DNA of 64,000 bases from Gammaproteobacteria bacterium (lineage in GTDB: Bacteria; Pseudomonadota; Gammaproteobacteria; Eutrophobiales; Eutrophobiaceae). The notes under the pieces were generated by a model, which made no database searches, was not told the DNA's origin, and saw only the letters and a program-made list of their open reading frames with translations. This document shows positions 34,559 to 55,885 of this stretch, piece after piece; positions within the stretch are counted from its first letter, which is position 1, and each line of letters begins with the position of its first letter. Where the stretch lies: positions 1,082,605 through 1,146,604 of the forward strand of contig OZ245331.1 in the NCBI GenBank assembly GCA_965226155.1. The letters run 5' to 3'. Both the position numbers and the translations under genes were made by a program.

Positions 34559-34591
34559 CAAGATTGGGTCCGCAAACTTGACAGCATTAAA

Positions 34592-35764: not shown

Positions 35765-35777
35765 AACTAATCCCACC

Positions 35778-36680: not shown

Positions 36681-36695
36681 TCACCCAGGGTAGCT

Positions 36696-37379: not shown

Positions 37380-37535
37380 AAATACCGGTTAAAATTGCAG
37401 CCTGGACAGGCTTGCAACCACCTATCAAAATAGGCATATTGACTAAGGGGACACCGAATCTGCGATCATCAGGTATAGGCCTGATTTTTAACCATTACTG
37501 CACCAGGAATATGAAAATCTCATACAAACACGGTC

Positions 37536-38680
37536 ATGTCAGTTACTAAGTTAAAATCGTTTATATCCACTTTTATAGCATGCTTCGGTCTGACGTGGTG
37601 CGGTAGCGTCATGGTGGACTACAAGCTGAATTTGACTCAGGGTGCCACTACCATTAGTAGGGAAGTGTATTACCTGCACATGCTCGCCTTGTGGGTCGTA
37701 TCTGACATCGGCGTTATCGTTTTCGGCCTGATGTTTTGGTCTATCATATTCCATAGAAAATCAAAAGGGAGCCCAGCAGCCCAATTTCATCACAGCACAA
37801 AGTGGGAAGCGCTATGGACAGTAATACCGATTTTTATACTACTCTCCTTCGCAGCACCATCTACTAGAACCCTTATTCTGATGGAAGACACTGAAGATTC
37901 GGAGATGACGATCAAGGTCACGGGGTATCAATGGAAGTGGCGATATGAATATTTAGATGAAGGCATTAGTTTTTTCAGTGCTCTCGCGCCGGAACATAAT
38001 CAGGCGATAGAGAAAAATTCCGGCGTGGACGCAACGTAGATAGAGAATTACTTGCTTGAAGTTGACACTCCGCTGGTCATCCCCAAAAAAAAATCCGCAT
38101 CCTGACTACGGCCAACGATGTTATTCACGCATGGTGGATACCAGAATTAGGTTGGAAGCGTGATGCCATCCCTGGCTTTATCAATGTTAACTGGACCAGG
38201 CTTACTGAACCGGGAATATACCGTGGCCAGTGTGCAGAATTGTGCGGAAAGGATCATGCTTATATGCTTGTTGTGCTTGAAGCGGTAAGCGAAAGTGATT
38301 TCGCAGACTGGGTTGTACGAAAAAAGCGTGAATTGGCCGAGGCTGCTGCGGGCGCTGACAGGGATTGGACGATGGCAGAACTCATGGAACGAGGTCAAAG
38401 GGTTTATACTTCCACTTGCATAACATGTCACCAAGCGAACGGTCAGGGTTTGCCTCCAACCTTTCCAGCGCTTACCGGAAGCGCAGTAACGACCGGCCCC
38501 TTGCAGGAACATCTTAATGTCGTGCTTAATGGTCGACCCGGAACCACCATGCAGGCGTTCGGACAACAACTAAATACAGTGGATCTAGCGTCTGTCATTA
38601 TCTTTGAGCGTAACGCGCCAGGAAGCAGTGTCGGAGACATGGCTCAGCCCTTAGAGGTTAAAGCCGCATTTGGAAATTAA
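37536..38680 (+). pseudogene. coxB: Native-GC paralog of cytochrome c oxidase subunit II (caa3-type, with C-terminal cytochrome c domain), disrupted
   Basis: The N-terminal TM/CuA part (37536-38039) ends at an in-frame TAG (38037-38039). ENYLLEVDTPLVIPKKK..IHAWWIPELGW..CAELCGKDHAYM continues after a -1 shift in an A9 run (38083-38091). C-terminal CxxCH domain CITCH at 38240-38680. ~50% identical to the intact coxB at 53919-55106. Confidence 0.75.
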
Positions 38681-38716
38681 TCGAAAACAGCAAGTAACCA
38701 TTTGAGGTAACGACGA

Positions 38717-40308
<1,592 letters not shown>

Positions 40309-40450
40309 CTTGGCCATGGTGAGACATGACCATAACGGTAATATTAAATTGAACGAAGAGCTGTCTCGCAAAAACAAGAGACTGGCAATAATGCTCGGGT
40401 TTTTTTCGTTGCTAATGTATCTGGGATTTATTTTGGCTTATTCTTAAAAA

Positions 40451-41011
40451 ATGCAACAAGATCGAAACAAAAAAACCGTCTTAAGCTTAGCGCTAATTGC
40501 TATAGCGATGTTTGGGTTCGGGTATGCATTGGGGCCCTTGTACGATGTTATCTGTGAGATAACAGGTTTAAATGGAAAAACAGGAAGAGTGACGGAAACA
40601 CAAGCTGGGGCTAGTCAGTTAGACCAGGACAGATTAGTCACCATCCAATTTGACACCAATGTAAATAGCGAACTTCCATGGAAGTTTGGTTCCATGGTCA
40701 AGAAAATGCAGATACACCCAGGCGAGTTGAACGAGGCCGTGTTTTATGCAGAAAATCTGTCGTCACAGACAATTACCGGGCAGGCCGTTCCCAGCGTTGC
40801 ATCAGCCGAGGCATCCTTGTACTTTAATAAGACCGAATGTTTCTGTTTTACTCAACAGTCGTTGGAGCCAGGAGAGCGTATTGAAATGCCGGTACGTTTT
40901 ATAGTTGATCCAAAACTGCCAGAACGTATCAGGATGCTGACTCTGTCTTACACCTTTTCCCGTGTCCAGAGCCAAGTCACATTCACGGTCTCAGGCTATA
41001 GTGGTACATAG
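40451..41011 (+). CDS. ctaG: Cytochrome c oxidase assembly protein CtaG/Cox11 (native-GC copy, apparently intact)
   Basis: 186 aa; N-terminal TM and conserved CFCF copper-binding motif; paralog of the 51695-52267 gene. Confidence 0.8.
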   Translation: MQQDRNKKTVLSLALIAIAMFGFGYALGPLYDVICEITGLNGKTGRVTETQAGASQLDQDRLVTIQFDTNVNSELPWKFGSMVKKMQIHPGELNEAVFYAENLSSQTITGQAVPSVASAEASLYFNKTECFCFTQQSLEPGERIEMPVRFIVDPKLPERIRMLTLSYTFSRVQSQVTFTVSGYSGT

Positions 41012-41038
41012 AGATCATGAGCACCCATGTAACGGAGA

Positions 41039-41919
41039 ATGACTATGTCTGAATCAAATACTTCATACTATCTGCCGGATCCCAGCCACTGGCCTATCAC
41101 CAGTTCGATCGGACTGTTCACAATTTTTGTCGGTGGTGCAGTTTGGCTCAATGGGTTCGGATCAGGTCCTTGGATCCTTATAGCGGGCATTGCGGTGTTT
41201 GTATATATGCTGTTTGGTTGGTTTGGTATTGTTATTCGAGAAAGTGAAGGCGGGAAATACAATGATCAGGTAGATGATAGTTTTCGCATGTCGATGATCT
41301 GGTTTATTTTTTCTGAGGTCATGTTTTTCGCATGTTTTTTTGGCGTGCTATTTTATGCTCGGCTTTTTCTATTCCTTGGCTAGGCGGAGAAGGTGCTGGT
41401 GTCGCTACCAATTTGTTTCTGTGGCCTGATTTTGTTGCAGAGTGGCCGATTAATGTCATGCCTGATCCGTCAGGATTCAATATTTATACGGAATTCATGC
41501 CTGCATGGGGTATCCCTGCCATCAATACAGTCATACTTTTGGCGAGCGGCGCCACAGTGACTTTTGCACATTGGGAGTTAGAGGAAGGTAATCGATCGGG
41601 GTTGTGCTGGTGGTTAGCCGTGACGGTTGCTCTGGGTTTTGTATTTGTTTGTATGCAGGCGTATGAATATGTACACGCCCATGAAGAATTGAGCCTTACT
41701 ATGCATTCTGGGATTTACGGGACGACATTTTATATGTTAACAGGTTTTCATGGTGTGCACGTGTCCCTGGGCGCGACTATGTTAGCGGTTATTTTAGCCA
41801 GGGCGATGAAAGGCCATTTCAGAGAAGTTCATCATTTTGCCTTCGAAGCCTTTGCTTGGTATTGGCATTTCGTCGACGTCGTATGGTTGATGTTGTTTAT
41901 TACAGTCTACTGGGTTTGA
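41039..41919 (+). pseudogene. coxC: Native-GC paralog of cytochrome c oxidase subunit III, one frameshift
   Basis: Two ORFs (41039-41383, 41332-41919) collinear with intact coxC; the shift lies in a T5 run near 41366 (FYARLF|SIPWLGG); C-terminus FITVYWV matches the subunit III end. Confidence 0.7.
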
Positions 41920-41986
41920 TAACCAAATCATCGGTTTAATTTTTTCGGAGCAGGCCGATAATGGAAGCCACTATTTTGTCAGTACC

Positions 41987-42073
41987 GGTTTCGTGCTGAG
42001 AGAATCGATCAAGCACCCGACGAAACACCTGATCTTTCATGTGGTGGCGTCCGAGGTATTCAATTCGAGGATG
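41987..42073 (+). pseudogene. Orphan 5' fragment of an actB-like gene (29 codons, no start), inverted partial copy of the actB1 N-terminus
   Basis: Translates GFVLRESIKHPTKHLIFHVVASEVFNSRM*, versus ActB1 GFMLRESIKHPTEYLIPHVMAPEDFSTGI. About 80% nucleotide identity to 49691-49775 (opposite strand), including 31/33 identical at 41975-42010. Confidence 0.7.
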
Positions 42074-42110
42074 TAACCCGACTGTTTTTCTTCATATTTG
42101 TATACTGGTT

Positions 42111-42296
42111 TTAGATGTATCTGCTTATAAACCCTATCCCCAACAGAACAAGCAACAGGACAGCTAAAGCTACCCGAATGCTCAGTGAAATAACAGTTCG
42201 CTCCGTCTTGCCGTGGTCCCGCACCAGAAAATAGAGACCGCCGCCCAGACTGACAAGAATTCCAAACATCACAAGTATAATAAGAAGGTTTAACAT
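42111..42296 (-). CDS. Twin-transmembrane-helix small protein (DUF2909 family), copy 1
   Basis: 61 aa, two hydrophobic helices separated by RDHGKTERT; family typically sits between coxC and SURF1; paralog at 55886-56131. Confidence 0.6.
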   Translation of the reverse strand: MLNLLIILVMFGILVSLGGGLYFLVRDHGKTERTVISLSIRVALAVLLLVLLGIGFISRYI

Positions 42297-42469
42297 TTTG
42301 TTACGGAGCGTGATGCGGCTTCAAAGAATTAAGGACACAGAATGGTGTAATGAATTATCGAAGTCAAACTGACCGTTGCCCCTTAGGGCGACAGCCACCA
42401 GCCACACTCGAAATACCCGTAGATTTGATTGACTCACACAGTCACCGTATAGGTCAGACACCAATTATG

Positions 42470-43054
42470 CTAACGATCTGAAGCGCGAAGCAACCGCTTT
42501 AGATCATCGAGTGCGCCATGCCCGTCTTCACTAGGGGGATAGGTCAAAACGATGCGCCCCCGATAATCGACGATGAGTAATGCTATATTGAGCTGCGGCT
42601 CGCCCGTAGCGCGACGCAGTGCACCGATGAGCTTGCCGTCTGTAGGCAATAGCCAGGGTTGCCCACGCGGGATTTGCGCATCGTCTTCAGGGCCGAGCGA
42701 GACCAAGGCAACACGGTTTATGTCGCGTCCCACCGCGACCTGGATACGCTCGGCAATCTGCAACAAGGTCTGACACGGCTCAGTGCAGTAGGCATCGTGC
42801 AACACCACTAGAAACCAGTCGCGTGCGGCAGCGTCCACAGTGAGCTCCGCACCAGCAGCGTCCATGACACCATAAGATTTCAGGTGTAACGGCGGTTGTA
42901 ATAGCATGCCGTGATTGACGGTATTTACCGGGCGCCAGTCGAGTGGCCCCACAGCAAATAGCCATGCGAGTACTATCGGTAGCGCGAACACCGTTACGAT
43001 CACCAACAAGGTGCGGCGCCCCTTCGTTTGCACTTCCTGTTCCGGCGCGTTCAA
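42470..43054 (-). CDS. Membrane-anchored thioredoxin-fold protein with CxxxC motif (SCO-like, PA0112-like family), island copy
   Basis: 194 aa; N-terminal TM; YCTEPC motif; clear paralog of 56983-57558 (shared LxVLH/LYLV-C-x3-C and C-terminal LIVDYRGRIVLTYPPSEDGHGALDDLKRLL vs LYLIDPLGNLMMFYPSETDPNGILKDLIRLL). Confidence 0.55.
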   Translation of the reverse strand: MNAPEQEVQTKGRRTLLVIVTVFALPIVLAWLFAVGPLDWRPVNTVNHGMLLQPPLHLKSYGVMDAAGAELTVDAAARDWFLVVLHDAYCTEPCQTLLQIAERIQVAVGRDINRVALVSLGPEDDAQIPRGQPWLLPTDGKLIGALRRATGEPQLNIALLIVDYRGRIVLTYPPSEDGHGALDDLKRLLRASDR

Positions 43055-43152
43055 GGCGTGATTGCTTTAGCGCTAAGTAGCGTGACTCCGCCGACCAAAG
43101 CAGTTAGTGGAAAACCGATTCTCGGCACTTTTCGTCGCACTATCACGTGCGA

Positions 43153-44394
43153 CTATGGGCGGATGCTGGTACGGTCCGGATCGCCGTCGAATGTTCCAGC
43201 CGTGTCGGGCCGCAAGTTTATCTCCCAGTATGAGAACAGGGGTAATCGCCTGGCGAGAATAACAACCATAGCAAGGAAACCGGCCAACAGCCCAATCGAC
43301 AGGCCCACGTTCAGCAAATTATCGAGCGGACGATCATTGGGTGAGAAAACCGGAATGACCATCAGGTACTTGTTTATCCAGATACCCAGGTTGATGCCGA
43401 GTCCGATGATACACATCGCCAATAACGATCGATTAAAGATGGCGAAAATTAAGGCGATAAAGGGGACGAAGAAACAGCCGGCCATCATGGTCCAATAATA
43501 AGGCGCGTAATGTCCGTACATTTGGCGCCACAAGGGTTCGGTTTCGTGGGGCAGGTTGCCAAACCAAATCACAAAGAACTGAGCCCAGAAAAAATACAGC
43601 CACAACAGCATAAAGGCGGTGATCAACATGCTGAGTTGACGGATTTGGCGGGGTCCAAAGTAGGATCCCGCTGTTGAGAAACGGCCAAGAATCACCGGGA
43701 TCACCATCAGCGCAGCCGTCCCCGCATACAGGTTACCGAACCAGAAGTGAATCGGAAACACGGTACTGTGCCAGTGTGGAATAAGCATCATGGCGAAATC
43801 CCAGGCAAAAAAAGTGTTACAGATTACGAAACTGATCAGAACCAGAGGTGACAATAAATAAAGTTGGCACGCTACTTCACGATGGTCGACATCATGCGAT
43901 CCCGCAAGATCGGGCCGTATGGCCTTTACAACGTAGACTGTACTCAGTCCGTAGAACAATAACAGGCCAAAGAGTTGCCTCAACAACAACCAGTTACTGT
44001 TCAACCATGGACTAAGATGTTCGTCAGGGGAGGCCGAGAGCCAATAGAAGAGATCTTCTTTGGCGTAGTAATAAATCAGCAGGAAGCCCAAGATGGCGAA
44101 CGGGAAAAACGCCATGGTGCTGAGCTCGGCGACCCGATAGTAAGGCTTGGACCATTCTGCGCCGACCAGGCGGCAGATGGCGCAAAATACAACGCCAGCC
44201 TGGCTCACGCCCATGAGAAATAGAAACGAAACGATAAGCAAACCAAACTCGGGCTGAATAGTCTCATTAGTCGCCCCGTAAACGGGACCTGCAAATCCTA
44301 CAAGGGTCAATGCGATTAGCGCCCAATGCGCAACATTGCCTCGTTGACGTGGCAGAGGGTGCTGGACGATTACTGAGGACTGTTCGGCGCTCAT
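43153..44394 (-). CDS. actF: Alternative Complex III subunit ActF (NrfD/PsrC-like polytopic membrane subunit)
   Basis: 413 aa with ~10 TM segments; last gene of the actABCDEF series; NrfD-like topology. Confidence 0.65.
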   Translation of the reverse strand: MSAEQSSVIVQHPLPRQRGNVAHWALIALTLVGFAGPVYGATNETIQPEFGLLIVSFLFLMGVSQAGVVFCAICRLVGAEWSKPYYRVAELSTMAFFPFAILGFLLIYYYAKEDLFYWLSASPDEHLSPWLNSNWLLLRQLFGLLLFYGLSTVYVVKAIRPDLAGSHDVDHREVACQLYLLSPLVLISFVICNTFFAWDFAMMLIPHWHSTVFPIHFWFGNLYAGTAALMVIPVILGRFSTAGSYFGPRQIRQLSMLITAFMLLWLYFFWAQFFVIWFGNLPHETEPLWRQMYGHYAPYYWTMMAGCFFVPFIALIFAIFNRSLLAMCIIGLGINLGIWINKYLMVIPVFSPNDRPLDNLLNVGLSIGLLAGFLAMVVILARRLPLFSYWEINLRPDTAGTFDGDPDRTSIRP

Positions 44395-44930
44395 TGGTTC
44401 CCAAACTGGTGTTTAACGTAATTGATGACGTTCCACCGTTCCTCCGCGTTTAACGCGTCACGGTAGAACGGCATCAGCTCCCGACCGCGCGTGAGCGTAA
44501 AGAACATCTGCCCGTCGGCCTGGTCCTGAGTATAGTCATCATTAAAGTCCACCGGGGCTTTGGTGATAAATTTTTTCCCGACCGGTCCTTCGCCTCGGCC
44601 TTGTGGGCCGTGACAGACTAGGCAGTTCATCTCGTAGAGATACTTCCCCCGGGCCAGTGATTCTACGGTCGCGGGCACTGGATTTGGCACTGCCGCCGCT
44701 GCATCCTTGGCCTCGTCCATGCCGACATTGGTCGTTGGCGCCGGCAGGGTTTCGCCGCCCACGATGGGAACCGAACCGGGCTCCGCGGGCGCCGGTGATC
44801 TCTGAGGTTTGGCTCCCGGCTGATCGACCATGTCCTGATCCCAGGGATAGCCCCAGCTGAGACCCGTCTGGCCTAATAGCAGCAATACCGTGATAGCACG
44901 GATAAACCTCTTTACAGCTTCTCTCATCAA
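44391..44930 (-). CDS. actE: Alternative Complex III subunit ActE (monoheme cytochrome c)
   Basis: 179 aa; signal peptide; single CxxCH (CLVCH); 4-nt overlaps with both neighbours. Confidence 0.7.
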   Translation of the reverse strand: MMREAVKRFIRAITVLLLLGQTGLSWGYPWDQDMVDQPGAKPQRSPAPAEPGSVPIVGGETLPAPTTNVGMDEAKDAAAAVPNPVPATVESLARGKYLYEMNCLVCHGPQGRGEGPVGKKFITKAPVDFNDDYTQDQADGQMFFTLTRGRELMPFYRDALNAEERWNVINYVKHQFGNQ

Positions 44931-45436
44931 TTCTCCTCCACCATTTCCCGGACCTGTTCAGCGCCGGCCTCACGCAGGATGGCTTCAGCGTGTTTGAAGT
45001 GTTCGTCGTCGTAGGCCACCATCACTGCAAATTTGTCGACCGCCGTTTCCGGCGCGTAGACGCGGTTGCGGATAGCGGGCAGCCGTGAGCTGATAAAAAA
45101 GCCCAGTACCGTAAACACGATGCCGAACAAGATGGTCATTTCGTAAGTAATAATCAAATACGGAGGCAAGGTAATGATGGGTCGACCACCGGTTGGGTGC
45201 GGATAGAGCACGGCGGTGCCCGCTGCAAGTACAAAGCCCGATATGCCGCCGATCAGTGCACCAAAAAATGTAAAGTGCTTGATCACGGATTTTTTCTCAC
45301 CGAGCACTTCTTCCACACCCTCAACCGGGACCGGCGACATAAGCTCCGGGGTGGCAAAGCCGGCGCCTTTGAGCTTGCCCGCCGCTGCCAGGGCCGAGCG
45401 AGGTTCGTTAAAGAGTCCTAGAGCAATGTTTGTCAT
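44927..45436 (-). CDS. actD: Alternative Complex III subunit ActD (DUF3341-like membrane protein)
   Basis: 169 aa, two TM helices; position between actC and actE. Confidence 0.65.
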   Translation of the reverse strand: MTNIALGLFNEPRSALAAAGKLKGAGFATPELMSPVPVEGVEEVLGEKKSVIKHFTFFGALIGGISGFVLAAGTAVLYPHPTGGRPIITLPPYLIITYEMTILFGIVFTVLGFFISSRLPAIRNRVYAPETAVDKFAVMVAYDDEHFKHAEAILREAGAEQVREMVEEN

Positions 45437-46779
45437 GCAGGACTCCGATGGACGGCGGCCGTGGCCTTGGGGGTGTCCATGGTTTCCTTCACTTCGTACA
45501 TAGACACACTGGGAAATATCTTGACGAACAGAAGAAACAGCGTCACGAATAGCGTGAGAGACCCTACCAAAATCGAGATCTCAACCAGACTGGGTACGTA
45601 CAGGCCCCAGGCGTCCGGTAGGTATTGCCGCGACAGCGAGGTGGCGATAATGAGGAAACGCTCCGTGTACATGCCGATATTAATTGCAATCGACAATATC
45701 AGCATGGGCACGAACGAGGTTCGAAAGCGCTTGAATATGCACAGTAGCGGCGCTACCGCGCAGAACGCAATCATCTCCCAGTACAATGGGGCGTAATAAC
45801 CGAATAATTTATACCTCAGCGCTTCGTGCTCGGTGGAAGTGCCGCTATACCAGCCGGTAAATAGCTCGATCACATTGATATAGGTCCAGATCAACGAAAG
45901 CATTAGCAACAGTTTACCCAGATTGTCGAAATGGATTTTGGTGATGTATTGTTCGAAGTTCATATATTTTCTGAGTACGAACATCACCGTGACGATACCG
46001 GCAGTGCCGGAGTAGATGGCGCCGACCACGAAATACGGTGCAAAGATGGTCTGGTGTAGCGCCGGCACGATGGACATGGCGAAATCCCAGGAGACGATGC
46101 TGTGCACCGAGACCGCCAGTGGAATGATGAGGACCGCGAGAAACGTGTAGGCCCAATGTAAGCGGTGCCATTCCTTGTCAGTTCCACGCCAGCCCAGGGA
46201 CAGCAAGGTATACATGTGGTTGCGCCAGCCGCTGGTGCGATCTCTGACCGCGGCGAAATCTGGGATGGAACCCATATAAATGAAGATTGAACTACCTGTC
46301 AGATAGGTGGTGATGGCCATGACGTCAAACAGCAATGGAGAGCGAAAATTAGGCCACATTTCCATTTGATTAGGATAGGGCAGTGCCCAATGAATGAACC
46401 ATGGACGCCCAACGTGCACCATCACCATGGTAGCAGCCACCATCAGTGAAAAAAGCGTCATGGCCTCTGCGCTTCGATACATAGCTTTACGCCAAGAACT
46501 ATTGGTCAGGTGCAGAACGCAGGACAGCAAAGTGCCTGAATGGCTGAGGCCTATCCAAAAGACAAAGCTGGCGAGATACGTTCCCCAGACTCCGGGGTGA
46601 TTCATCCCAGCCGCGCCAATGCCATAATAGAGCTGATAGAACCAGGGGAAAAAGAAGCACAGTAGGGTTATGCTGCCAGCGATCGCTAGCGTGACATAAT
46701 AGTTGGGACCCGTTTCCAAAATGGACCTTACAACGTCCTGGTGGACGTCGGCGTACTGCAAGTCGTTCGTTTTAGCCAT
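45433..46779 (-). CDS. actC: Alternative Complex III subunit ActC (NrfD-family quinol-interacting membrane subunit)
   Basis: 448 aa polytopic NrfD/PsrC-like protein immediately after the FeS subunit. Confidence 0.75.
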   Translation of the reverse strand: MAKTNDLQYADVHQDVVRSILETGPNYYVTLAIAGSITLLCFFFPWFYQLYYGIGAAGMNHPGVWGTYLASFVFWIGLSHSGTLLSCVLHLTNSSWRKAMYRSAEAMTLFSLMVAATMVMVHVGRPWFIHWALPYPNQMEMWPNFRSPLLFDVMAITTYLTGSSIFIYMGSIPDFAAVRDRTSGWRNHMYTLLSLGWRGTDKEWHRLHWAYTFLAVLIIPLAVSVHSIVSWDFAMSIVPALHQTIFAPYFVVGAIYSGTAGIVTVMFVLRKYMNFEQYITKIHFDNLGKLLLMLSLIWTYINVIELFTGWYSGTSTEHEALRYKLFGYYAPLYWEMIAFCAVAPLLCIFKRFRTSFVPMLILSIAINIGMYTERFLIIATSLSRQYLPDAWGLYVPSLVEISILVGSLTLFVTLFLLFVKIFPSVSMYEVKETMDTPKATAAVHRSPA

Positions 46780-46781
46780 AG

Positions 46782-47546
46782 TTACACTTTTTCGTCAACT
46801 TTTTTCAGGTAGACGATGGACGGGTCGGTGTTCAGCTCGTCCAACACTCGATAGCCGCGTGGATCATTCATCGATTTGGAAACTTGACTTTCTGGATCCT
46901 TGCGATCACCGAAGACCAAGGCTTGGGTGGGGCAGGTCTGTACACAGGCCGGTTGAACCTCGCCGTCGCGCACTCGCCTACGGCCGTCGTCTTTGGCGGT
47001 ATCTTTGGCCTGGCGGATGCGCTGGATGCAGAAGGTGCATTTCTCCATCACTCCCTTTTCGCGCACAGTCACGTCGGGATTCAATTGCTGGTCCAGCGGG
47101 CTGTCCCAGTGATGATCGTTGTAATTGAAGTAACGGACCTCATAGGGACAATAGACCGCACAAGAGCGGGTTCCAATACAGCGATTGTAGATCTGGGTGT
47201 TGAGACCGTCCTGGTTGTGATAGGTGGCGCTTACCGGACACACCGTCTCGCACGGCGCCGAATCACAGTGTTGGCATAACATCGGGATGAAGCGAAGCTT
47301 GACGTTAGGGTACTCCCCCTCCCAGTAGCGTTCGATCCGGATCCACTTCACCTCTCTGCCCTTGGCGAACGCCTTCTCGCCGACGATGGGTAGATTATTC
47401 TCAGCCTGACAGGCGGTCACACAAGCCTCGCAGCCGGTGCATCGATCGAGGTCGATGGTCATCGCCCAGTGGTAGTCGAATTCGTCGTAGTAGCCGGGCT
47501 TTCGGTATTTCCGCCAGCTGTTGGTAAATCGGTCCAGTAAGCTCAT
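46782..47546 (-). CDS. actB: Alternative Complex III FeS subunit ActB2 (4Fe-4S ferredoxin-type)
   Basis: 254 aa with multiple Cys clusters (CTGCEACVTAC, CQHCDSAPCETVCP, CIGTRSCAVYCP, CTFCIQR) typical of the PsrB-like FeS module. Confidence 0.8.
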   Translation of the reverse strand: MSLLDRFTNSWRKYRKPGYYDEFDYHWAMTIDLDRCTGCEACVTACQAENNLPIVGEKAFAKGREVKWIRIERYWEGEYPNVKLRFIPMLCQHCDSAPCETVCPVSATYHNQDGLNTQIYNRCIGTRSCAVYCPYEVRYFNYNDHHWDSPLDQQLNPDVTVREKGVMEKCTFCIQRIRQAKDTAKDDGRRRVRDGEVQPACVQTCPTQALVFGDRKDPESQVSKSMNDPRGYRVLDELNTDPSIVYLKKVDEKV

Positions 47547-49831
47547 GTTGATACCACCGTTATTGGGATACTGTTCAGTTTAGCGCTAGCATTCTGGCGA
47601 GTTGTGCCACCAGTTGTTGGCACGATCTCTCTGCCCAGTTCGCGCGAGTTACCGCCGGTCTTCACCAGATCGACCCGGCGCCCGGTGGCAACGATCTTCA
47701 CCCGCGTGGCGCTCGAAGCAAGTCCGCCCGTGTGTGGTTCCATCTGCGGGCTAAGGATTTCAATCGGGTTGGCGCCGCGGTCTTTAGCATAGCGGCCGTA
47801 TTCGCTGTGACCTTGTCCAATAGGCATCGCGATGACGTCGGGCATGATGGCTGGATAAATGTAAACCGGCGCACGGATCTGCCCGTGTTCGGACTCAATG
47901 TCGACCAAAGCCCCCTCCGTTAAACCTAGCTGCTTCGCAGTAGCCGGATTAATTTCCACCCAGGACCCGTAGACCACGCTGGTCAGAGGGTCCGGTAGTT
48001 CCTGCATCCAGGGCAAATTAGCAGCACTGCCATCATGCAAGGCAGTTGAAAGATAAGGGTGCAGGATAAACGGATACTCTTCAATTGACCCAGAAAATTC
48101 GGGGGGCTGGACGCCAATGCTGTCAATGACACCTTTGTCTATGGTAATTGATGACTCGCGGCGTGTTGTTTCTCCCCATACGCCGGCCTTTAGGATCGCC
48201 GTCCAGAACAAATCGAAACTTTCCGTACCTGTTTGTGGACCACCGCGCTCGTAGATCTGGCGCCAACTGTCCTTTATATAATCTTCCATGCTGCTCCACG
48301 GGATTGCGTTACTTAAGCCCAGCTGTTGCGCTAGACTCAGGATAATGTCTCCGGTCGCTCGGGTGTTGTACAGGGGCGATACTACCGGTTGCGAGACGGC
48401 GCCGATGCGGAAACCCACACCCGGTTCCGGAAAGTCGTCGCCCCAGCTTTCCAGGTAAGTGTGGCTCGGTAGGATCAAGTCTGCTAGCACCGTGGTTTCA
48501 TCCAGGAAACTGGACAAGCTGACAACCAGCGGTATCTTAGTCAGCGCCTCTTTGAACCCGACCACCAATGGCATAGTAAATACCGGGTTGGTGTCATTGA
48601 GGATCAAAACCTCGATGTTGCCCTGCTGCGCATCCTCAGCGAGTTCGAGCATCGTACGATAACTGGCTTGGCGCTGGTGAGAGACCTGGCCTGCGGTTAC
48701 TGGGTTGAACACCAGCCCACCTGTCTTGCCGATGTTGTCAACCAGATAATTGAGTGCATTGACCGCAACCAAGTTGTCGACACCATTGGTATTGCTACCC
48801 GCGCCTCCGCCGCCAATGGCAAGGCTAGGGTCGGTGTGAAAAAACGTGTCGGCCAACCGGGTGATGGTGGCCTCCGGGACGTCGGTCTGTTCGGCCACCT
48901 TGGGAGCCGAGTAATCGGCAAGTATAGCTACCCAGTCGTCGTGATCGGCTCCCTGGTAGAGGCCTTTGGAGACTATATGGTGGGCCAGGCCCAGGGCCAA
49001 AATACCCTCCGTGCCGGGTCTGCTAGCAATCCACTCATCTGCAGCAGCGCCGCTTAGAGACATCCTCGGTTCGATCTGAACAAACTGCCCCCTGATATCG
49101 GGCCGGCCCTGGCGGCTGTCGCCATAGCCGAGGCTGTGATGCACGGGGGAAATCCAGCTTCCGAGGAAATCGGCCCCGAAAGACAGCAGAAAACGGGTAT
49201 TTTTTAAATCGTAATAAGGCAGGTTCTTCTCACCAAAGAATCGGTTGTTGGCCTCATACAAGGTATGCGGATGGTCAAAATCGTAGTGCAGCAGACGTTC
49301 GGAGCCCAGTTGGCCCATAAATCGTTCAAATAGTTGCGCCAGATTTCCGCGGACACCCTGGCTCAGCAAACAAACGCGGTTGCCCCGCCCTGCAGCTACT
49401 AACAAGTCCAGGCGCTTAGCGAGTTTGCTTAAGCCCTCTTCCCAGGTGATTTGCGCGAAGGACATGGAGCCGCGCTCTGCAGTTTGTTGCAACGGACCAG
49501 TCAATCGATCTGGGTTGTACAAGACTTGAAGTCCTGACTGGCCCATGGCGCAAAGCCGGCCCTGGTTGACAGGATGCGAAGGATTGCCTTCAATCTTTTT
49601 GGCGCGTCCTTCTCGGGTCCGTACGGAGATACCACAACCAGCCGTACACATCTGGCATACTGAGTTATACCATGTGGCGATTCCAGTGCTGAAGTCCTCG
49701 GGCGCCATCACATGAGGGATCAGATACTCCGTCGGGTGCTTGATTGATTCTCTCAGCATGAACCCGGCACCTGCCCCTACGCCTGCGGCGCCAACCAGCT
49801 TGAGAAATTCTCTGCGTTCTATATTTGGCAT
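47543..49831 (-). CDS. actB: Alternative Complex III subunit ActB1 (molybdopterin-oxidoreductase-like domain, Tat signal)
   Basis: 762 aa; twin-arginine signal RREFLKLVGAAGVGAGAG; MopB-like fold; split B1/B2 arrangement. Confidence 0.8.
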   Translation of the reverse strand: MPNIERREFLKLVGAAGVGAGAGFMLRESIKHPTEYLIPHVMAPEDFSTGIATWYNSVCQMCTAGCGISVRTREGRAKKIEGNPSHPVNQGRLCAMGQSGLQVLYNPDRLTGPLQQTAERGSMSFAQITWEEGLSKLAKRLDLLVAAGRGNRVCLLSQGVRGNLAQLFERFMGQLGSERLLHYDFDHPHTLYEANNRFFGEKNLPYYDLKNTRFLLSFGADFLGSWISPVHHSLGYGDSRQGRPDIRGQFVQIEPRMSLSGAAADEWIASRPGTEGILALGLAHHIVSKGLYQGADHDDWVAILADYSAPKVAEQTDVPEATITRLADTFFHTDPSLAIGGGGAGSNTNGVDNLVAVNALNYLVDNIGKTGGLVFNPVTAGQVSHQRQASYRTMLELAEDAQQGNIEVLILNDTNPVFTMPLVVGFKEALTKIPLVVSLSSFLDETTVLADLILPSHTYLESWGDDFPEPGVGFRIGAVSQPVVSPLYNTRATGDIILSLAQQLGLSNAIPWSSMEDYIKDSWRQIYERGGPQTGTESFDLFWTAILKAGVWGETTRRESSITIDKGVIDSIGVQPPEFSGSIEEYPFILHPYLSTALHDGSAANLPWMQELPDPLTSVVYGSWVEINPATAKQLGLTEGALVDIESEHGQIRAPVYIYPAIMPDVIAMPIGQGHSEYGRYAKDRGANPIEILSPQMEPHTGGLASSATRVKIVATGRRVDLVKTGGNSRELGREIVPTTGGTTRQNASAKLNSIPITVVST

Positions 49832-49843
49832 AACATTCTTCTC

Positions 49844-50416
49844 TTACTTATGACAAGTCCAACAATCCAGGCCGTTCTCTACCTCATGTTGCTTGTGGCA
49901 GTTGAGGCACAAACCCATTTCCCAAGGACTGTCCAGCTGGATAGATCCATCAATTGCCCTGCTGGTCACATGAATTTTGTCCATGGTTTCAACGGGTCCG
50001 TGGCAGGTTTGGCACTCAATGCCTGCCAATACGTGGCGTTTATGAGTGAAGTGAACGAAATCTGGCAGATCATGAACTTTGATCCAGGGGATGGGCTCTT
50101 TATTGTCCCAGTAGCTGATTAGTTTGCGTATCTGTGGCCGCTCCGTTGCGACCTCGTTGTGACAACCTACACATTTTGAGACGCTGGGGACCCCGGCGTT
50201 TATGGAACGGCGCGCCTGGGTATGACAATACATGCACTGGATCTCATTGTCGCCAGCGTGGACCTTGTGGCTGAACGCGATAGGTTGTTCCGGGCTAGTG
50301 CCCGGAAAGAACGCCGCGTTTGCCCAATAGCCTCCCACCAGACCGAGCAATACGGCGGTGGTTACCAGTGCCGCTGGCTTTAGTACTCTTAATGCCGGGA
50401 CAATTGAAACGTTCAT
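49844..50416 (-). CDS. actA: Alternative Complex III subunit ActA (pentaheme cytochrome c)
   Basis: 190 aa with N-terminal TM anchor and five CxxCH motifs (CMYCH, CVGCH, CQTCH, CLNCH, CWTCH). Confidence 0.8.
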   Translation of the reverse strand: MNVSIVPALRVLKPAALVTTAVLLGLVGGYWANAAFFPGTSPEQPIAFSHKVHAGDNEIQCMYCHTQARRSINAGVPSVSKCVGCHNEVATERPQIRKLISYWDNKEPIPWIKVHDLPDFVHFTHKRHVLAGIECQTCHGPVETMDKIHVTSRAIDGSIQLDSPWEMGLCLNCHKQHEVENGLDCWTCHK

Positions 50417-50761
50417 CTATTCCGCGCTCCGAGTTACCAAACCCAGGGTTTCTCCAAACCCGTCACCGAACTCGTGGATCGAGCTGGCCATGTCCGCATT
50501 CTTTGTTGCCCGTAAATAAGTGTCAGCCATCTTATGAATTACTTGGTAGAAATAGAGGTTCATGTCGTCGACGGTCGTATCTTTAATCCATAGATCGATC
50601 GCGGCAGTCGTCTTGTTTTCGTTGTCCCAGACTGAAAGCATCATCGACTGACATAAAACCGGGCCGTTTTCTTGCCCCTCTGAGGCTTGCCATTCGATTC
50701 GAGTTGGCAAATCGTCGCTGTCAAGGTCGACGGTCAATTTGATTTCTGCAGTTCTTGACAT
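50417..50761 (-). CDS. Small acidic cytoplasmic protein, possibly GldC-like (low confidence), between coxC and actA
   Basis: 114 aa; no TM or signal; resemblance to GldC-family proteins (IKLTVDLD...RIEW...MLSVWD...IDLW.KD...MADTY.RAT) recalled from memory, not searched. Confidence 0.4.
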   Translation of the reverse strand: MSRTAEIKLTVDLDSDDLPTRIEWQASEGQENGPVLCQSMMLSVWDNENKTTAAIDLWIKDTTVDDMNLYFYQVIHKMADTYLRATKNADMASSIHEFGDGFGETLGLVTRSAE

Positions 50762-50813
50762 TAATTTTATTCTATTCGCTTGTTTTTAACGTTGTGTTTG
50801 TAAGCAGATTCTT

Positions 50814-51698
50814 CTAAAACCAGTATACAAATGTAAAAAGAAATAGCCATATCACATCCACGAAGTGCCAATACCAGCTCACAGCTTCAAAGGCGAAATG
50901 GTTTTCCGGGGTGAAATGGCCACTGAAACAACGCAGCAACATGACAGTCAGCATGATCGTTCCCATGGTTACATGCACGCCGTGGAACCCGGTCAGCATA
51001 AAGAAGGTCGAGCCGTAAATTCCAGCTCCCAGATTCAGGCCCAACTCGTTGTAGGCATGGATGTACTCAACGGCCTGCAAGGTCAGGAAGGTCGCGCCCA
51101 GAACTACGGTAATAGCTAGCCAGATTTGTAACGGTAATCTTTGGTTTTTTCTTAGTGCCCAATGAGCAAACGTGACCGTGACGCTACTGGTGACCAGAAT
51201 GACAGTATTGATAAAGGGCAGACCCCACGCCTCCATCGCCTCGGTAGCATCGCCGCTGGGGGTCATAAACAGCGGCCAGGTATCTGCGAAGTTGGGCCAT
51301 AACAGCACGTGTGTTTCCAGATTATTGCCCGCTCCGGCCAGCCATGGTACAGAAATGATCCGGGCGTAAAAAAGCGCACCGAAAAACGCGGCGAAGAACA
51401 TGACTTCTGAAAGAATGAACCAGGCCATGCCCATGCGATAGGTACGGTCGAGCAAATTACTGTTCATGCCTTTGACAGATTCCCTGATGACGGTCCCAAA
51501 CCAGCCGAACATCATGAACGCGACCAGGGCCAGTCCGGTGTAGAAGATCGGTTCCCCGTAACTGCCATCGGCTGTGACCTTTTCAGTGCTCTGGTGGATG
51601 AAGGTGGCGCCACCGAAGGCGGTCACAAACAGCGCAATAGACCCGATAATGGGCCAGGGGCTGGAGTGTGGGACGTAGTAGCGGGGCGCTTCACTCAT
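50814..51698 (-). CDS. coxC: Cytochrome c oxidase subunit III (intact, high-GC copy)
   Basis: 294 aa, 7 TM, conserved HFVDVIWLFLF C-terminal region. Confidence 0.9.
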   Translation of the reverse strand: MSEAPRYYVPHSSPWPIIGSIALFVTAFGGATFIHQSTEKVTADGSYGEPIFYTGLALVAFMMFGWFGTVIRESVKGMNSNLLDRTYRMGMAWFILSEVMFFAAFFGALFYARIISVPWLAGAGNNLETHVLLWPNFADTWPLFMTPSGDATEAMEAWGLPFINTVILVTSSVTVTFAHWALRKNQRLPLQIWLAITVVLGATFLTLQAVEYIHAYNELGLNLGAGIYGSTFFMLTGFHGVHVTMGTIMLTVMLLRCFSGHFTPENHFAFEAVSWYWHFVDVIWLFLFTFVYWF

Positions 51699-52267
51699 TG
51701 CTGATCACTCGCAAGCATCGCAACAGTGCTCGTGGTCTGAACTGTAGGCACCTTGTACAGGGCATAAGACAAACTGAGGGTATGGATCTCCTTCGGTAGA
51801 TCGTCGCCGATATAAAACCTCACGGGCATCCGCCGATCTTCACCATCCTCTAGGAGTTGTTGAGTGAAGCAAAAACATTCAATTTTATGCAGATACTCAG
51901 CAGCGTAACCCGGCGCCACGCTGGGCACGGCTTGTCCAGTCACCGCCTGAGTGGCGAGGTTACGGGCGTAGTAGTCAGTGCTGTTGATTTCCCCCAGTCG
52001 AACCCGCAGCTGATTTTCTGTTGGCCGAAACTCCCATGGCATGCCGTTACCGACGTGGGCCAGGAACTGGATCGTCACTTTGCGATCAGAGATTTGCGAG
52101 ACTATGGCGGGGTCAGCCGCGCGCCCGGCGGTTTTGCCGTTCAGCCCGGTCACCTCGCAAAAGAGCTCGTAAAGCGGCACCAGGGCGTAAGCAAACCCAA
52201 ACATACCGAAAGCCAGCAAAGAAAGCAGAATTACATGCTTACGCTGATTGTTGCGTGTCTCAATCAT
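51695..52267 (-). CDS. ctaG: Cytochrome c oxidase assembly protein CtaG/Cox11 (high-GC copy)
   Basis: Start set at MIETRNNQ (ATG 52265-52267), 5 nt after the coxA stop; CFCF motif; the longer ORF to 52402 overlaps coxA. Confidence 0.8.
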   Translation of the reverse strand: MIETRNNQRKHVILLSLLAFGMFGFAYALVPLYELFCEVTGLNGKTAGRAADPAIVSQISDRKVTIQFLAHVGNGMPWEFRPTENQLRVRLGEINSTDYYARNLATQAVTGQAVPSVAPGYAAEYLHKIECFCFTQQLLEDGEDRRMPVRFYIGDDLPKEIHTLSLSYALYKVPTVQTTSTVAMLASDQQ

Positions 52268-53906
52268 CGACAGGCGTTCCTGTTCGATGATACGGGGGTT
52301 CCCCCGTTGACCACGCATCCATAATCGGAGGGAATGGCGGTGGCGTCTCGAACGTGTGATGTGGTGCCGGAGACGGCACTGTCCACTCCAAACCGTCCGC
52401 ACCCTCCCAAACCTGGGCGCTTGCCGGCTCCCCGCCGCGTATGGTCTTGATCACGATGTACAGGAACAAGACCTGTGTCAGGCCCAGCAGTCCGGCGCCG
52501 ACGCTGGAAACCATGTTGAAATCCGCAAATTGCAGGGAGTAATCTACAATCCGCCGGGGCATGCCGGCAAGCCCCGTAAAATGCATTGGGAAAAAGGTCA
52601 GGTTGATCGCGATCACCGCCGTCCAGAAGTGAATCTGGCCCAGCCGCTCATCGTACATGTGGCCAGTCCACTTGGGTAGCCAGTAATACACCCCCGCCAT
52701 GGTGCCGAAGATGGCGCCGGGATATAAAACGTAGTGGAAGTGTGCCACCACAAACATGGTGTCGTGATATTGAAAATCGGCCGGCACGAGGGCCAGCATA
52801 AGCCCGGAGAAACCGCCAATGGTAAATAATATGACGAAGCCGAGGGCAAACAACATGGGTGTTTCAAAGGTCATGGAGCCGCGCCACATGGTGGCCACCC
52901 AGTTGAACACCTTCACCCCGGTGGGGACGGCGATCAACATCGTCGCGTACATAAAGAACAATTCAGCCACCAGTGGCATGCCGGTGGTGAACATGTGATG
53001 CCCCCAGACAATAAAGGACAAAATTGCGATCGAAACAGTCGCGAACACCATGGAATGATAGCCGAACAGCTTCTTGCGGGCGAACGTGGGGATGATCTGT
53101 GAGGCGACGCCAAAACCCGGCAGGATTAAGATGTAGACCTCCGGGTGTCCAAAGAACCAGAAAATGTGCTGAAACATAACCGGATCGCCGCCGCCCGCCG
53201 CATTAAAAAAACTGGTGCCGAAATGACGGTCGGTGAGCATCATGGTGACCACCCCGGCCAACACCGGCATGACCATGATGAGCAGGAAGGCAGTGATTAA
53301 CCAGGTCCAGACGAATAGGGGCATTTTCATCAACGTCATGCTCGGCGTGCGCAGATTGAAGACGGTGATAATGATGTTGATGGCGCCCAGTACCGATGAA
53401 ACTCCCATCATGTGGACACCGAGAATAAAGAAATCGGTGCTCGGCGGCCCATAGGTGGTAGATAGGGGTGCGTAAAAAGTCCAGCCGAAATTAGGTGCGC
53501 CGCCTTCCATAAAGAGCGACGAGAGTAACAGGGTGAAGGCGAAGGGCAGGATCCAGAAACTGAAATTATTCAGCCGCGGCAACGCCATGTCGGGCGCGCC
53601 TATCATCAACGGGATCTGCCAATTGGCCAATCCAACGAAGCCGGGCATCACTACGCCGAATATCATGATCAGCCCGTGCATAGTCACCATCTGATTGTAG
53701 AAAAGCGGGTCTGTGAATTGGATTCCGGGTTGGAACAACTCCAAACGGATAACCATCGCCATTGCCCCGGCAATAAAAAACAGTGTCAGACTGAGACACA
53801 GATACAGAGTGCCGATCTCCTTGTGGTTGGTGGTCAGTAACCAGCGGGCGAGAAACGCCAGCAGCCGAGAGCGATGTGGAATTACGTCTTCTGCGTGTGT
53901 AACCAT
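52260..53906 (-). CDS. coxA: Cytochrome c oxidase subunit I (intact, high-GC copy)
   Basis: 548 aa, 12 TM; heme/CuB His ligands in conserved blocks (GHPEVYILILPGFG, HHMF, VAHFHYVL). Confidence 0.95.
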   Translation of the reverse strand: MVTHAEDVIPHRSRLLAFLARWLLTTNHKEIGTLYLCLSLTLFFIAGAMAMVIRLELFQPGIQFTDPLFYNQMVTMHGLIMIFGVVMPGFVGLANWQIPLMIGAPDMALPRLNNFSFWILPFAFTLLLSSLFMEGGAPNFGWTFYAPLSTTYGPPSTDFFILGVHMMGVSSVLGAINIIITVFNLRTPSMTLMKMPLFVWTWLITAFLLIMVMPVLAGVVTMMLTDRHFGTSFFNAAGGGDPVMFQHIFWFFGHPEVYILILPGFGVASQIIPTFARKKLFGYHSMVFATVSIAILSFIVWGHHMFTTGMPLVAELFFMYATMLIAVPTGVKVFNWVATMWRGSMTFETPMLFALGFVILFTIGGFSGLMLALVPADFQYHDTMFVVAHFHYVLYPGAIFGTMAGVYYWLPKWTGHMYDERLGQIHFWTAVIAINLTFFPMHFTGLAGMPRRIVDYSLQFADFNMVSSVGAGLLGLTQVLFLYIVIKTIRGGEPASAQVWEGADGLEWTVPSPAPHHTFETPPPFPPIMDAWSTGEPPYHRTGTPVDD

Positions 53907-53918
53907 TAGTAAGTCACC

Positions 53919-55106
53919 TTAACGGGCCGCGTAAATGGTTCTGGGTTGAACGACATCACCTATATTGTTACCCCAGGCATTGCGCTCATAGGTAATCACG
54001 GCGGCGATGTCGCGATCGGATAACTGTGGTGCCCAGGCTTGCATCTCGGTATCGGCCAAACCAAACATAACGCGATCGAGATGCGCCGCTAGGGGTCCTG
54101 TGGGGATCTCACCGCCGGCCAATGCTGGATACGTGATGCCCTGGCCCCTGCCATCTGCCTCATGACAGGTCGAGCAATGTTCCAAAAAGACCTGCTCGCC
54201 GATCACCATGAGCTCCGCCATATCCCATTCCTTTGCCCGGTCGGCCACCGCTTGTCCTGAGGCGAGCTCCTTGGCGATTCGTTGATCTTCGATCCACTGA
54301 TCGAATTCGGCCTCCGGTTTCACTTCCACGACGACTGGCATAAAGGAATGGTCTTTGCCGCAGAGTTCGGCACATTGACCCCGATACAGCCCCGGTTCTC
54401 CGACCCGTGTCCACGCCTCGTTGATATACCCTGGAATCGCATCCTGCTTTACAGCAAAGTCCGGCACCCACCAGGAGTGAATGACGTCGTTGGAGGTCAC
54501 AAGGAAACGAACCTTCTTATTAGTGGGCAGCACCAGGGGATTGTCCACCTCAAGCAAATAGTTCTCGCCCTTGGGTTCGAGGTTGTTGATCTGTGCCTCA
54601 GGCGTAGTTATGTTGCTGTAGTAACCGATGTCCGCTTCAATATATTGATAGTGCCATTTCCACTGAGAGGCGGTGATGAGGATGGTGAGATCCGCATCGC
54701 TGTTGTCTTCGATGTCTATTAGCGCCGTGGTCGCTGGTATGGCCATGCCGACCAGGATCAAGACTGGGATTACGGTCCATATGACTTCCGCTACGGTGCT
54801 CTCATGAAAGTCAGCGGGTTGTGGGTGCCTCGAGCGCCGATGGGCGAAGATGGAGTAGAACATGGCGCCGAAGACAATGACACCGACAACTACGCAGATC
54901 CACAGACTCAGTTGGTGCAGCCTCTGAATAGTCTGGCTCATTTCGGTGACACCTACACGTAAATTGTACACGGCGGCTAAGACGGTATGGGAGTAACCCC
55001 ACAAGAGACAGAGCATCAGACCGCGCTTGAGCTTGTTGGTGATAGGACTCACTTTTCTAGCCCAATTGTTATTTATTATCAGCATTAAATTAAGGCGACC
55101 TTTCAA
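53919..55106 (-). CDS. coxB: Cytochrome c oxidase subunit II with C-terminal cytochrome c domain (caa3-type)
   Basis: 395 aa; CuA motif CAELCGKDHSFM, C-terminal CSTCH heme c site. Confidence 0.92.
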   Translation of the reverse strand: MKGRLNLMLIINNNWARKVSPITNKLKRGLMLCLLWGYSHTVLAAVYNLRVGVTEMSQTIQRLHQLSLWICVVVGVIVFGAMFYSIFAHRRSRHPQPADFHESTVAEVIWTVIPVLILVGMAIPATTALIDIEDNSDADLTILITASQWKWHYQYIEADIGYYSNITTPEAQINNLEPKGENYLLEVDNPLVLPTNKKVRFLVTSNDVIHSWWVPDFAVKQDAIPGYINEAWTRVGEPGLYRGQCAELCGKDHSFMPVVVEVKPEAEFDQWIEDQRIAKELASGQAVADRAKEWDMAELMVIGEQVFLEHCSTCHEADGRGQGITYPALAGGEIPTGPLAAHLDRVMFGLADTEMQAWAPQLSDRDIAAVITYERNAWGNNIGDVVQPRTIYAAR

Positions 55107-55513
55107 CGTCTCAATTGGGCCGGTGTTCGTAGCTGATTTTCACCCTTCCAATCACGGTAGCGGATGGCGGTCACACGTTCGGCGGCGCCTTTCCAATCAC
55201 CTCGATGGGCCAGCAAAAACGTGTCCATGTCGATTTTCGCCTGCCACGGCCTGCCTTCCCAGTCGATAAACGCCAGGCTGGCATTGGCATGGCCGCTCCA
55301 TTGTCCTTCATTCTGAGGCCGTTGTTCAAAGGCATCATCACGAATCCAGGCAGTCCACTTTTCACCGTTCCAGGACACAAACTCCATTGAATTTTGTGCC
55401 CACGGTTGGTTAGCAGGCCCGGCTCCAGTGTCGATCGTTGCATCGAACGTCAGCTTAGCCGCCACAATAGTCGCTAGCACAGCCAGCGACAGACCCAAAA
55501 CAACTTTGATCAT
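55103..55513 (-). CDS. Secreted protein with two internal ~37-aa repeats, first gene of the cox-act operon
   Basis: 136 aa; signal peptide MIKVVLGLSLAVLATIVAA; repeats SMEFVSWNGEKWTAWIRDDAFEQRP / SLAFIDWEGRPWQAKIDMDTFLLAH; 4-nt overlap with the coxB start. Confidence 0.55.
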   Translation of the reverse strand: MIKVVLGLSLAVLATIVAAKLTFDATIDTGAGPANQPWAQNSMEFVSWNGEKWTAWIRDDAFEQRPQNEGQWSGHANASLAFIDWEGRPWQAKIDMDTFLLAHRGDWKGAAERVTAIRYRDWKGENQLRTPAQLRR

Positions 55514-55885
55514 TGAACCCCCAGATCACATTGGCATGCAAGGTGCCGAGCTTGGTATTGATGCATAGAGTTGCCGCAATCGACAGCATTCTTTTGTCGC
55601 CACGACCAGTAAAGTACTGTTGGGAAGCGCTCAGTTCTGCCAGAATTGCAGTCTCCACATCATTTTAAGCAGGGTAGGAAGGTAACTGCAGTTCGTATCC
55701 AAGTCAATAATTTCATTAAATTAGCGGATCTAGGTATTTAATCAAAACTTAACGTGAGATATTTCCCTTAAAAAATACGCCTAAATGTTGATATTATTCA
55801 ATAAGTTTTAAAACTGAATACTGCTTCGGAAACCAAACGGATTAATGTCAGTAATCTTACAAATTAAGTTTGGACAGGTAATATT

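Follow-up and report, generated by a model that had tools for sequence, protein, structure and literature searches.

How did a piece of the gene actB1 that has no start codon come to lie between the broken coxC gene of a host genome and a DUF2909 gene, inverted and 7.6 kb away from the complete actB1 gene that it resembles? Here, we address this question for a stretch of 64,000 nt (contig OZ245331.1; hereafter, the window), which we compared with related loci designated by L numbers. The comparison points to the fragment being, very probably, a junction scar, non-functional and in decay, that marks the outer edge of a cox-ACIII island gained by horizontal transfer. The features on which the argument rests, among them an actB1 relic (b1) and a coxC relic (c2), are listed in Table 1.

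Table 1. Features of the scar and its surroundings, in window coordinates.
Feature	Position	Strand	Basis
Native low-GC coxC pseudogene, 3' ORF, end of the host coxB-coxA-ctaG-coxC operon	41332..41919	+	Pfam COX3
Native intergenic DNA 3' of coxC, outside the relic	41920..41983	.	Unbroken L050 homology to 41983
Whole foreign segment, 13,679 nt, 52-56% GC	41984..55662	-	GC profile, Pfam, L050 homology
b1, actB1 relic, codons ~22-48, just past the Tat signal	41984..42062	+	Homology to actB1; no start codon
c2, coxC relic, last ~19 codons and stop (TAG 42112-42114)	42055..42114	+	Match to 50875-50796 (-)
Intact island DUF2909 gene, 61 aa	42111..42296	-	Pfam PF11137, E 1e-14, full length
g1, relic spanning the DUF2909-GldC intergenic region and ~20 initial GldC-like codons, now with stop codons	42297..42412	+	
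o194, thioredoxin-like/SCO-like assembly protein, last act-side gene before the inverted module	42470..43054	-	PF26971 on called homologues
Functional actB1 stretch, source of b1	49690..49770	-	Gene 47543-49831; Molybdop_Fe4S4, Molybdopterin, Molydop_binding
3' end of functional island coxC and 18 nt downstream	50796..50875	-	coxC = 50814-51698

The fragment and the edge of the island

Self-BLASTN of the 64-kb window aligned 41982-42062 (+) with 49770-49690 (-) without gaps, with identity at 67/81 nt (83%) and an E value of 1e-18. The in-frame translation of the fragment is GFVLRESIKHPTKHLIFHVVASEVFNSRM*, and codons 23-48 of ActB1 read GFMLRESIKHPTEYLIPHVMAPEDFS. The source gene of b1 encodes 762 aa and, based on Pfam, lies within a complete actA-B1-B2-C-D-E-F cluster. 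The sequence-only reading had described the fragment as a remnant of actB1 that forms an inverted repeat with the island gene at a spacing of 7.6 kb; the self-BLASTN alignment bears out both claims, and the remnant is non-coding. The interval that had been assigned to this remnant, 41945-42076, was only partly right, in that homology is found from 41982 onward but the first 39 nt (41945-41983) are native DNA shared with L050, a close relative of the host without the island. An extension of the relic through 41920-41981 to the actB1 start was considered and rejected: the similarity is not significant (80% of shuffles score as high), and 41920-41983 is native DNA.

The downstream part of the fragment has a different source. 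In a second self-BLASTN match, 42055-42132 (+) aligns with 50875-50796 (-) at 63/80 positions (79%, E 4e-13), and the target comprises the last ~19 codons of the island coxC gene (~56 nt), its stop codon, and 18 nt downstream. The b1 and c2 matches overlap by an ambiguous ~8 nt (GGTATTCA). Because c2 carries a 2-nt deletion relative to coxC that breaks the coxC register, the tail of the fragment ORF reads coxC-derived sequence out of frame. Together, the two matches show that the fragment is a chimera in which b1 is fused at 42055 to the coxC relic c2. The stop codon earlier ascribed to the actB1 remnant is, accordingly, present, but the tail leading up to it belongs to the coxC 3' end.

Chance similarity is ruled out for both pieces by their E values. 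The fragment has homology to a functional gene, lacks a start codon, and has a frame that runs out of register into the coxC relic before meeting a stop, as in a pseudogene fragment. An assembly artefact is likewise ruled out, because two independent short-read assemblies from other runs, L044 and L045, reproduce the junction region 31591-43603 with 3 and 13 mismatches, respectively, and zero indels.

Three lines of evidence identify the adjoining DNA as a genomic island. First, the GC content is 52-56% over ~42.0-55.5 kb compared to ~44% in the background. Second, the island is missing in L050, in which ctaG is 94% identical, the same genes gyrB and bioBFCD lie upstream, and coxB, coxA, ctaG, and coxC are all intact. 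L050 aligns to 34000-41983 (90.7%) and 55663-59581 (87%) with nothing between; because this homology stops at 41983 and resumes at 55663, the foreign segment spans 41984 to 55662. Third, copies of the island are present at other sites in other low-GC hosts. The scar begins at, or a few bases from, the native/foreign boundary (41983|41984), and b1 is the outermost piece of the foreign DNA, making up its first ~80 nt. The earlier suggestion that the fragment may be a footprint of integration or rearrangement is, thus, supported by the position of the scar at the boundary defined by L050.

On the minus strand, the island genes are arranged in the order o136, coxB, coxA, ctaG, coxC, GldC-like, actA, B1, B2, C, D, E, F, o194, and DUF2909, followed by the inverted relics. 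The ACIII genes are those for a multihaem cytochrome c (actA), molybdopterin-like proteins with 4Fe-4S domains (actB1/B2), NrfD-like proteins (actC/actF), ActD, and a cytochrome c (actE); each act gene has a Pfam match, and the operon is syntenic in 40+ loci. No integrase was found among the 15 island ORFs using Pfam.

The insertion site is the coxC-DUF2909 intergenic region, and the two ends of the island share, by eye, only a weak imperfect repeat. Integration anchored by homology in coxC and DUF2909 was rejected, as native coxC, a 64-nt native spacer, and native DUF2909 all flank the island intact. At the host/b1 joint, the native sequence TTTTGT[C/T]AGTGGC (L050) resembles GGCAGGTGCCGG of actB1, a resemblance that would fit microhomology-mediated illegitimate joining. 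The same joint contains the 12-mer TTGTCAGTACCG (41976-41987), which is also the tip of a MITE-like element in L046. This element has perfect terminal inverted repeats of 18-22 nt spaced ~100-125 nt apart (6203-6225, 6347-6369, 8748-8769, and 8862-8883), and its two copies flank a qNOR gene, one of them abutting the island end. We do not regard the shared 12-mer as meaningful: it occurs once in the window, consists mostly of native sequence, and is probably a chance match (p ~0.007 locally).

The inverted module and the relocated DUF2909 gene

To place c2 and its neighbors in context, the island genes were mapped on loci with ActB1 relatives, of which 42 came from genomes, 4 from metagenomes, and several more from protein look-ups. 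Two arrangements recur. In type A, found in ~28 of the 40+ loci, coxC and DUF2909 are tail-to-tail with overlapping stop codons, and the order is o136, coxB, coxA, ctaG, coxC ->, <- DUF2909, GldC-like ->, actA...actF (SURF1, o194). In type B, found in the window and about a dozen other loci, the order is coxC -> GldC -> act... (SURF1) o194 -> DUF2909 ->. Type A corresponds to the canonical proteobacterial order coxC -> <- DUF2909 SURF1 -> with the GldC-act genes inserted, and the native genes of the window itself keep this canonical order (native DUF2909, 55886-56131). We conclude that type A, the arrangement of the majority, is in all likelihood also the ancestral one.

Against this background, the last ~430 nt of the island (41984-42412) can be read piece by piece. 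They consist of b1, c2, the intact DUF2909 gene, and g1, all inverted with respect to the island genes. From 42055, where colinearity with type A begins, to 42412, the sequence is colinear with the coxC 3' end, DUF2909, the intergenic region, and the GldC 5' end of the type A loci L002, L003, L014, and L039. The stop codon of DUF2909 overlaps that of the relic coxC, as in the ancestral tail-to-tail arrangement, and the gene is 72-83% identical at the nucleotide level to type A DUF2909 in the same register. For g1, local alignment of 42359-42412 (+) to the 5' end of the island GldC gene gave p ~0.0005 by shuffling, with a non-significant reverse-complement control. These observations show that c2-DUF2909-g1 reproduces, in inverted orientation, the ancestral module coxC-> <-DUF2909 GldC->.

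The original site bears traces of the same event. The 18 nt past the island coxC are a relic of the 3' end of the DUF2909 gene that was deleted there. In L024, the nearest sampled relative of the island, the stump measures 43 nt and is part of an inverted repeat (8972-9014 versus 18527-18485, 91%, 43 nt), and a second inverted repeat involves the GldC 5' region (9020-9143 versus 18317-18196, 82%, 125 nt). The tail of c2 is also found at the island end in L046, L057, and L058/59, and the position of o194 is syntenic in 12 type B loci. In the type B lineage, then, an inverted copy of the coxC'-DUF2909-GldC' module was placed at the operon end, after which the original DUF2909 was lost by deletion. 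These two steps explain both c2 and g1. A poorly resolved neighbor-joining tree of ActB1, B2, C, and D intermixes type A and type B loci, so that DUF2909 may have been relocated once or several times independently.

The loci also differ in SURF1. An island copy lies between actF and o194 in L024, L035, L005-L009, and L047 and is missing in the window (43054-43153), L057, L058, and L055; in L046, a truncated copy of SURF1 is joined without a gap to DUF2909. For SURF1, the window presumably depends on its native gene at 56204-56950. Two further genes stand out by their conservation. The GldC-like gene (50417-50761, -; PF19937, E 3e-28) lies between coxC/DUF2909 and actA, and a gene upstream of coxB encodes a 136-aa protein without a Pfam match (55103-55513, -). 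Both are kept in essentially all of the 40+ related clusters, which suggests that their products are unannotated parts of the oxidase-ACIII module.

Age of the scar and decay of the host oxidase genes

The sequence-only reading took the fragment for a recent partial copy, on the grounds that it matches actB1 far better than the two cox operons match each other. The latter observation is correct, the cox operons matching at 66-74%, but it is uninformative about age because the two operons are xenologues (native, ~44% GC; island, 52-56% GC). A comparison with orthologues contradicts a recent origin. Over the same 81 columns, the island actB1 is 88-90% identical to the actB1 genes of L003, L004, L014, L024, L039, and L055 but only 82-83% identical to the fragment, even though the whole ActB1 proteins of these loci are only 76-80% identical to that of the island. 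The fragment is, thus, farther from the island actB1 than orthologues from other species are. At some sites at which the island actB1 has changed, moreover, the fragment retains the state of the other species (TCG, GTG GTG).

The pattern of change is that of sequence free of selection. Differences between b1 and actB1 are distributed 6/3/6 over the codon positions, and 8 codons differ non-synonymously and 2 synonymously, so that synonymous change is not in excess in b1. Conserved residues are among those hit (P->F, P->S, and D->V).

The scar is shared by a second host lineage. In the lineage of L055, L056, and L060, the island occupies the same site with the same two boundaries, and its identity to the window is 80% in ctaG and, at the nucleotide level, 78% in the bio genes and 83-84% in the island. 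In b1, L055 and the window share the derived GGTTTCGTG, where every actB1 has GG[G/A]TTCATG; in c2, they share the derived CCGACTG and ATATTTGT. The two c2 copies are 73% identical compared to 94% for the functional coxC ends. These shared derived bases, together with the divergence, imply that the scar predates the split between the window and the L055/L060 lineage. In each lineage, the scar has since decayed neutrally by roughly 13-19%, a noisy estimate based on ~80 nt.

In L055 (9213-9985; also L060, 7068-7661), b1 is split by a 772-nt low-GC insertion. This insertion carries a complete gene for a 198-aa Rieske/petA-like protein with a Tat signal and CTHLGC...CQCH motifs, an orphan Rieske gene that neighbors the ACIII operon and for which the locus shows no partner cytochrome b or c1. 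Native coxB and coxA have been deleted outright in this lineage.

In the window, the native oxidase genes are present but damaged. Relative to the intact L050 coxC, with which it shares 90.7% nucleotide identity, native coxC has a 1-nt deletion at 41363. Within 37536-41919, coxB has a 4-nt deletion and a stop, and coxA has +1, -4, and -1 indels and a stop. In total, coxB, coxA, and coxC have five frameshifting indels and two premature stops compared to L050, and the same lesions are present in two independent assemblies. Four assembly genes, ctaG (40451-41011) and, farther downstream, SURF1, ctaA, and ctaB (56204-59519), have by contrast remained intact. Because the lesions in coxB, coxA, and coxC are so few, the inactivation of these genes is much younger than the scar. 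It looks as if the native oxidase was replaced in situ by the island xenologue and the host structural genes then decayed.

Assembly of the scar and use of the insertion site

How b1 came to adjoin c2 is less readily explained than how c2 came to adjoin DUF2909. We suggest that illegitimate recombination at the short microhomology GG[A/T][A/C]TTCA fused b1 to c2, most likely in the donor lineage and in the same complex, template-switch-like rearrangement that moved DUF2909. In a template-switch version of this event, copying would have covered GldC'-DUF2909-'coxC first and would then have jumped to the opposite strand for ~80-140 nt of actB1. The donor DNA would subsequently have been joined, inside b1, to the host coxC-DUF2909 intergenic region at the microhomology CAG[G]TG[G]C. 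One simple inversion or deletion in a type A cluster cannot, on its own, produce the order b1->c2, and the proposed path is, therefore, a reconstruction rather than an observation. Single-step models, i.e., one inversion with staggered breaks, one deletion of an inverted duplication of the whole island, and circular permutation, were also examined, and none yields actB1'->'coxC in this order and orientation. Among the loci compared, a donor genome with the b1-c2 junction was not found.

b1 is present only in the window and the L055/L060 lineages and, therefore, could have arisen at integration. In that event, the donor DNA ended in c2, and a copy of ~80-140 nt of actB1 was captured as templated filler by microhomology-mediated repair. 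We consider this alternative the less probable one. It accounts for the location of b1 exactly at the native/foreign boundary and for its confinement to a host clade that shares one integration event. It also accounts for four other island ends that stop 2-20 nt past DUF2909 without b1; in window-equivalent positions, these island/host joints lie at 42109 (L024), 42105 (L058/59), 42099 (L057), and ~42093 (L046). In addition, b1 is marginally closer to the actB1 genes of the window and L055 (82-83%) than to those of L024 or L003 (78-79%), and its rough neutral age is about that of the window/L055 split. However, capture at integration requires an extra template switch 7.6 kb inside the incoming DNA, the four other ends may stem from a donor with b1 and simply have been truncated farther in, and distances over 80 nt cannot tell "at integration" from "shortly before". 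Because an origin in the donor makes the four shorter ends simple truncations and needs no extra event at integration, we weight a pre-existing b1-c2 joint somewhat above capture at integration.

An older tandem duplication is an unlikely source of the joint. If, in a type A cluster, ~1.4 kb reaching from the 3' end of coxC to the 5' end of actB1 were duplicated in tandem, and later inverted to the operon end and trimmed by deletions, the duplication would create a head-to-tail actB1'->'coxC joint and leave coxC and actB1 intact. Reasoning on the maps, an inversion, a flip between the two GldC-actA copies, and two deletions would then reproduce b1, c2, g1, and the DUF2909 stump of 18-43 nt, all correctly ordered and oriented. 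This path takes about five events as opposed to two, i.e., one complex template switch and one deletion, and among 50+ loci there is no intermediate with a duplicated DUF2909-GldC-actA segment.

The sequence-only reading also raised the possibility that the fragment is a substrate for inversion. Under this view, a recent duplication of the actB1 start would provide one of two inverted arms between which homologous recombination could flip the 7.6-kb act segment. Only the geometry speaks for this idea, with inverted arms of 83% identity 7.6 kb apart bracketing a gene-containing segment as in the invertible segments of phase variation. Several observations set the locus apart from such segments. 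The copy is older than the 16% nucleotide divergence of the island, and the longest exact run shared by the arms is 15 nt, a length below the minimum of ~25 nt generally cited for RecA-dependent recombination. Flipping would cut actB1 at codon ~48 and, thus, destroy the operon. All five assemblies (window, L044, L045, L055, and L060) have the same orientation. Finally, no recombinase gene was detected in or beside the island, whose 15 ORFs encode respiratory or assembly proteins or unknowns based on Pfam. A role as an inversion substrate is, thus, unsupported and very unlikely.

We give hardly any credence to a function of the fragment, be it as a small ORF, as an antisense or regulatory RNA, or in terminating the convergent transcripts of coxC and DUF2909: a sigma-70-like match at 41976-42005 is weak and not above shuffles, and the last ~20 nt of c2 are kept beside DUF2909 in several islands, but the start codon is absent, the reading frame does not continue across the b1/c2 joint, the L055 copy of the relic is interrupted by the insertion, divergence is neutral-like, also between the c2 orthologues as compared to coxC, and searches for an Rfam match, a terminator, and a promoter above shuffles found none in the fragment.

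The island itself belongs to a known type. The combined aa3-oxidase/ACIII cluster has been described as "COX operon type a-I" (Degli Esposti 2014, PMC4013037; Refojo et al. 2010 cited therein), and DUF2909, which is related to COX4, is a COX4-like gene for a small subunit in such operons (PMC4013037). The island is such a cluster of an aa3-type oxidase and ActA-F; the fragment itself is no gene of the system. The island of the window differs from the described operon in the position of DUF2909, now at the operon end rather than between coxC and GldC/actA, and in lacking an island SURF1. The scar, a start-less and frame-broken short piece that lies at the native/foreign boundary, appears joined by microhomology, and evolves neutrally, resembles the gene relics found at island edges. 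Gene fragments at the edges of islands are commonplace, as are joints at microhomologies. Unlike such relics, the scar is a two-piece chimera attached to a relocated DUF2909 gene that is still functional, and it also records an internal rearrangement of the operon that predates integration. It resembles the templated insertions of FoSTeS/MMBIR as well, in that short inverted copies from within 9 kb are joined at microhomologies beside a rearranged segment, except that the mechanism is here read from the end product and neither an intermediate nor a reciprocal product has been observed. FoSTeS/MMBIR models are best documented in eukaryotes and in experimental systems in E. coli.

In the literature that we searched, neither this scar nor the DUF2909 relocation is described. 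Nevertheless, the scar is an ordinary rearrangement scar and an instance of a well-known type of feature. Its value lies in the history that it records: it helps to date the island, places the island boundary with single-nucleotide precision, shows that DUF2909 had already been moved to the operon end when the island arrived, and shows that the window and the L055/L060 lineages share one integration event. The surroundings are of more interest than the fragment, comprising a foreign oxidase-ACIII cluster inside the host cox operon, the decay of the host structural genes, and an unrelated oxidase cluster in a sister lineage.

The type B cox-ACIII island is present in at least five different low-GC genomic contexts. 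In L024, L046, L057, L058/L059, and L006, the high-GC island lies beside a methyltransferase gene, the qNOR gene, or genes for an NHL protein and an rve transposase. The host DNA of L024 contains a REP-like hairpin, ATGACCGCTTTCGACCCAAAGCGGACAT, at least four times in 8 kb (2445-2473, 18952-18989, 20697-20727, and 21574-21602). Because its flanks carry this repeat, which is absent from the window, and have no match in the window, L024 is ruled out as coming from the same host as the window. On the DUF2909 side, the island ends all lie within ~25 nt of the DUF2909 stop except in the clade of the window, which keeps 125 nt more. One might, thus, ask whether the scar is the visible end of a recurrently mobile respiratory cassette, an idea that we regard as quite improbable. 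If true, it would imply an unrecognised, integrase-independent and end-defined exchange of terminal-oxidase modules at the coxC/DUF2909 junction, and b1-c2 would be the remnant of a transfer intermediate, e.g., the joint of a circular or concatemeric form.

The sister lineage has used practically the same nucleotide. At the position equivalent to window 41984/55662, L050 carries a different oxidase cluster of 5.07 kb (11536-16607, minus strand; COX2, COX1, two COX3, and COX4_pro) with host-like GC content, flanked by an 8-nt direct repeat, TTAGTGGC. The empty coxC-DUF2909 site is predicted to read ...TTTTGTTAGTGGCTGTTTTTAAGCAGG..., which puts the insertions in L050 and the window at most 10 nt apart, and the site may be a hotspot for respiratory modules.
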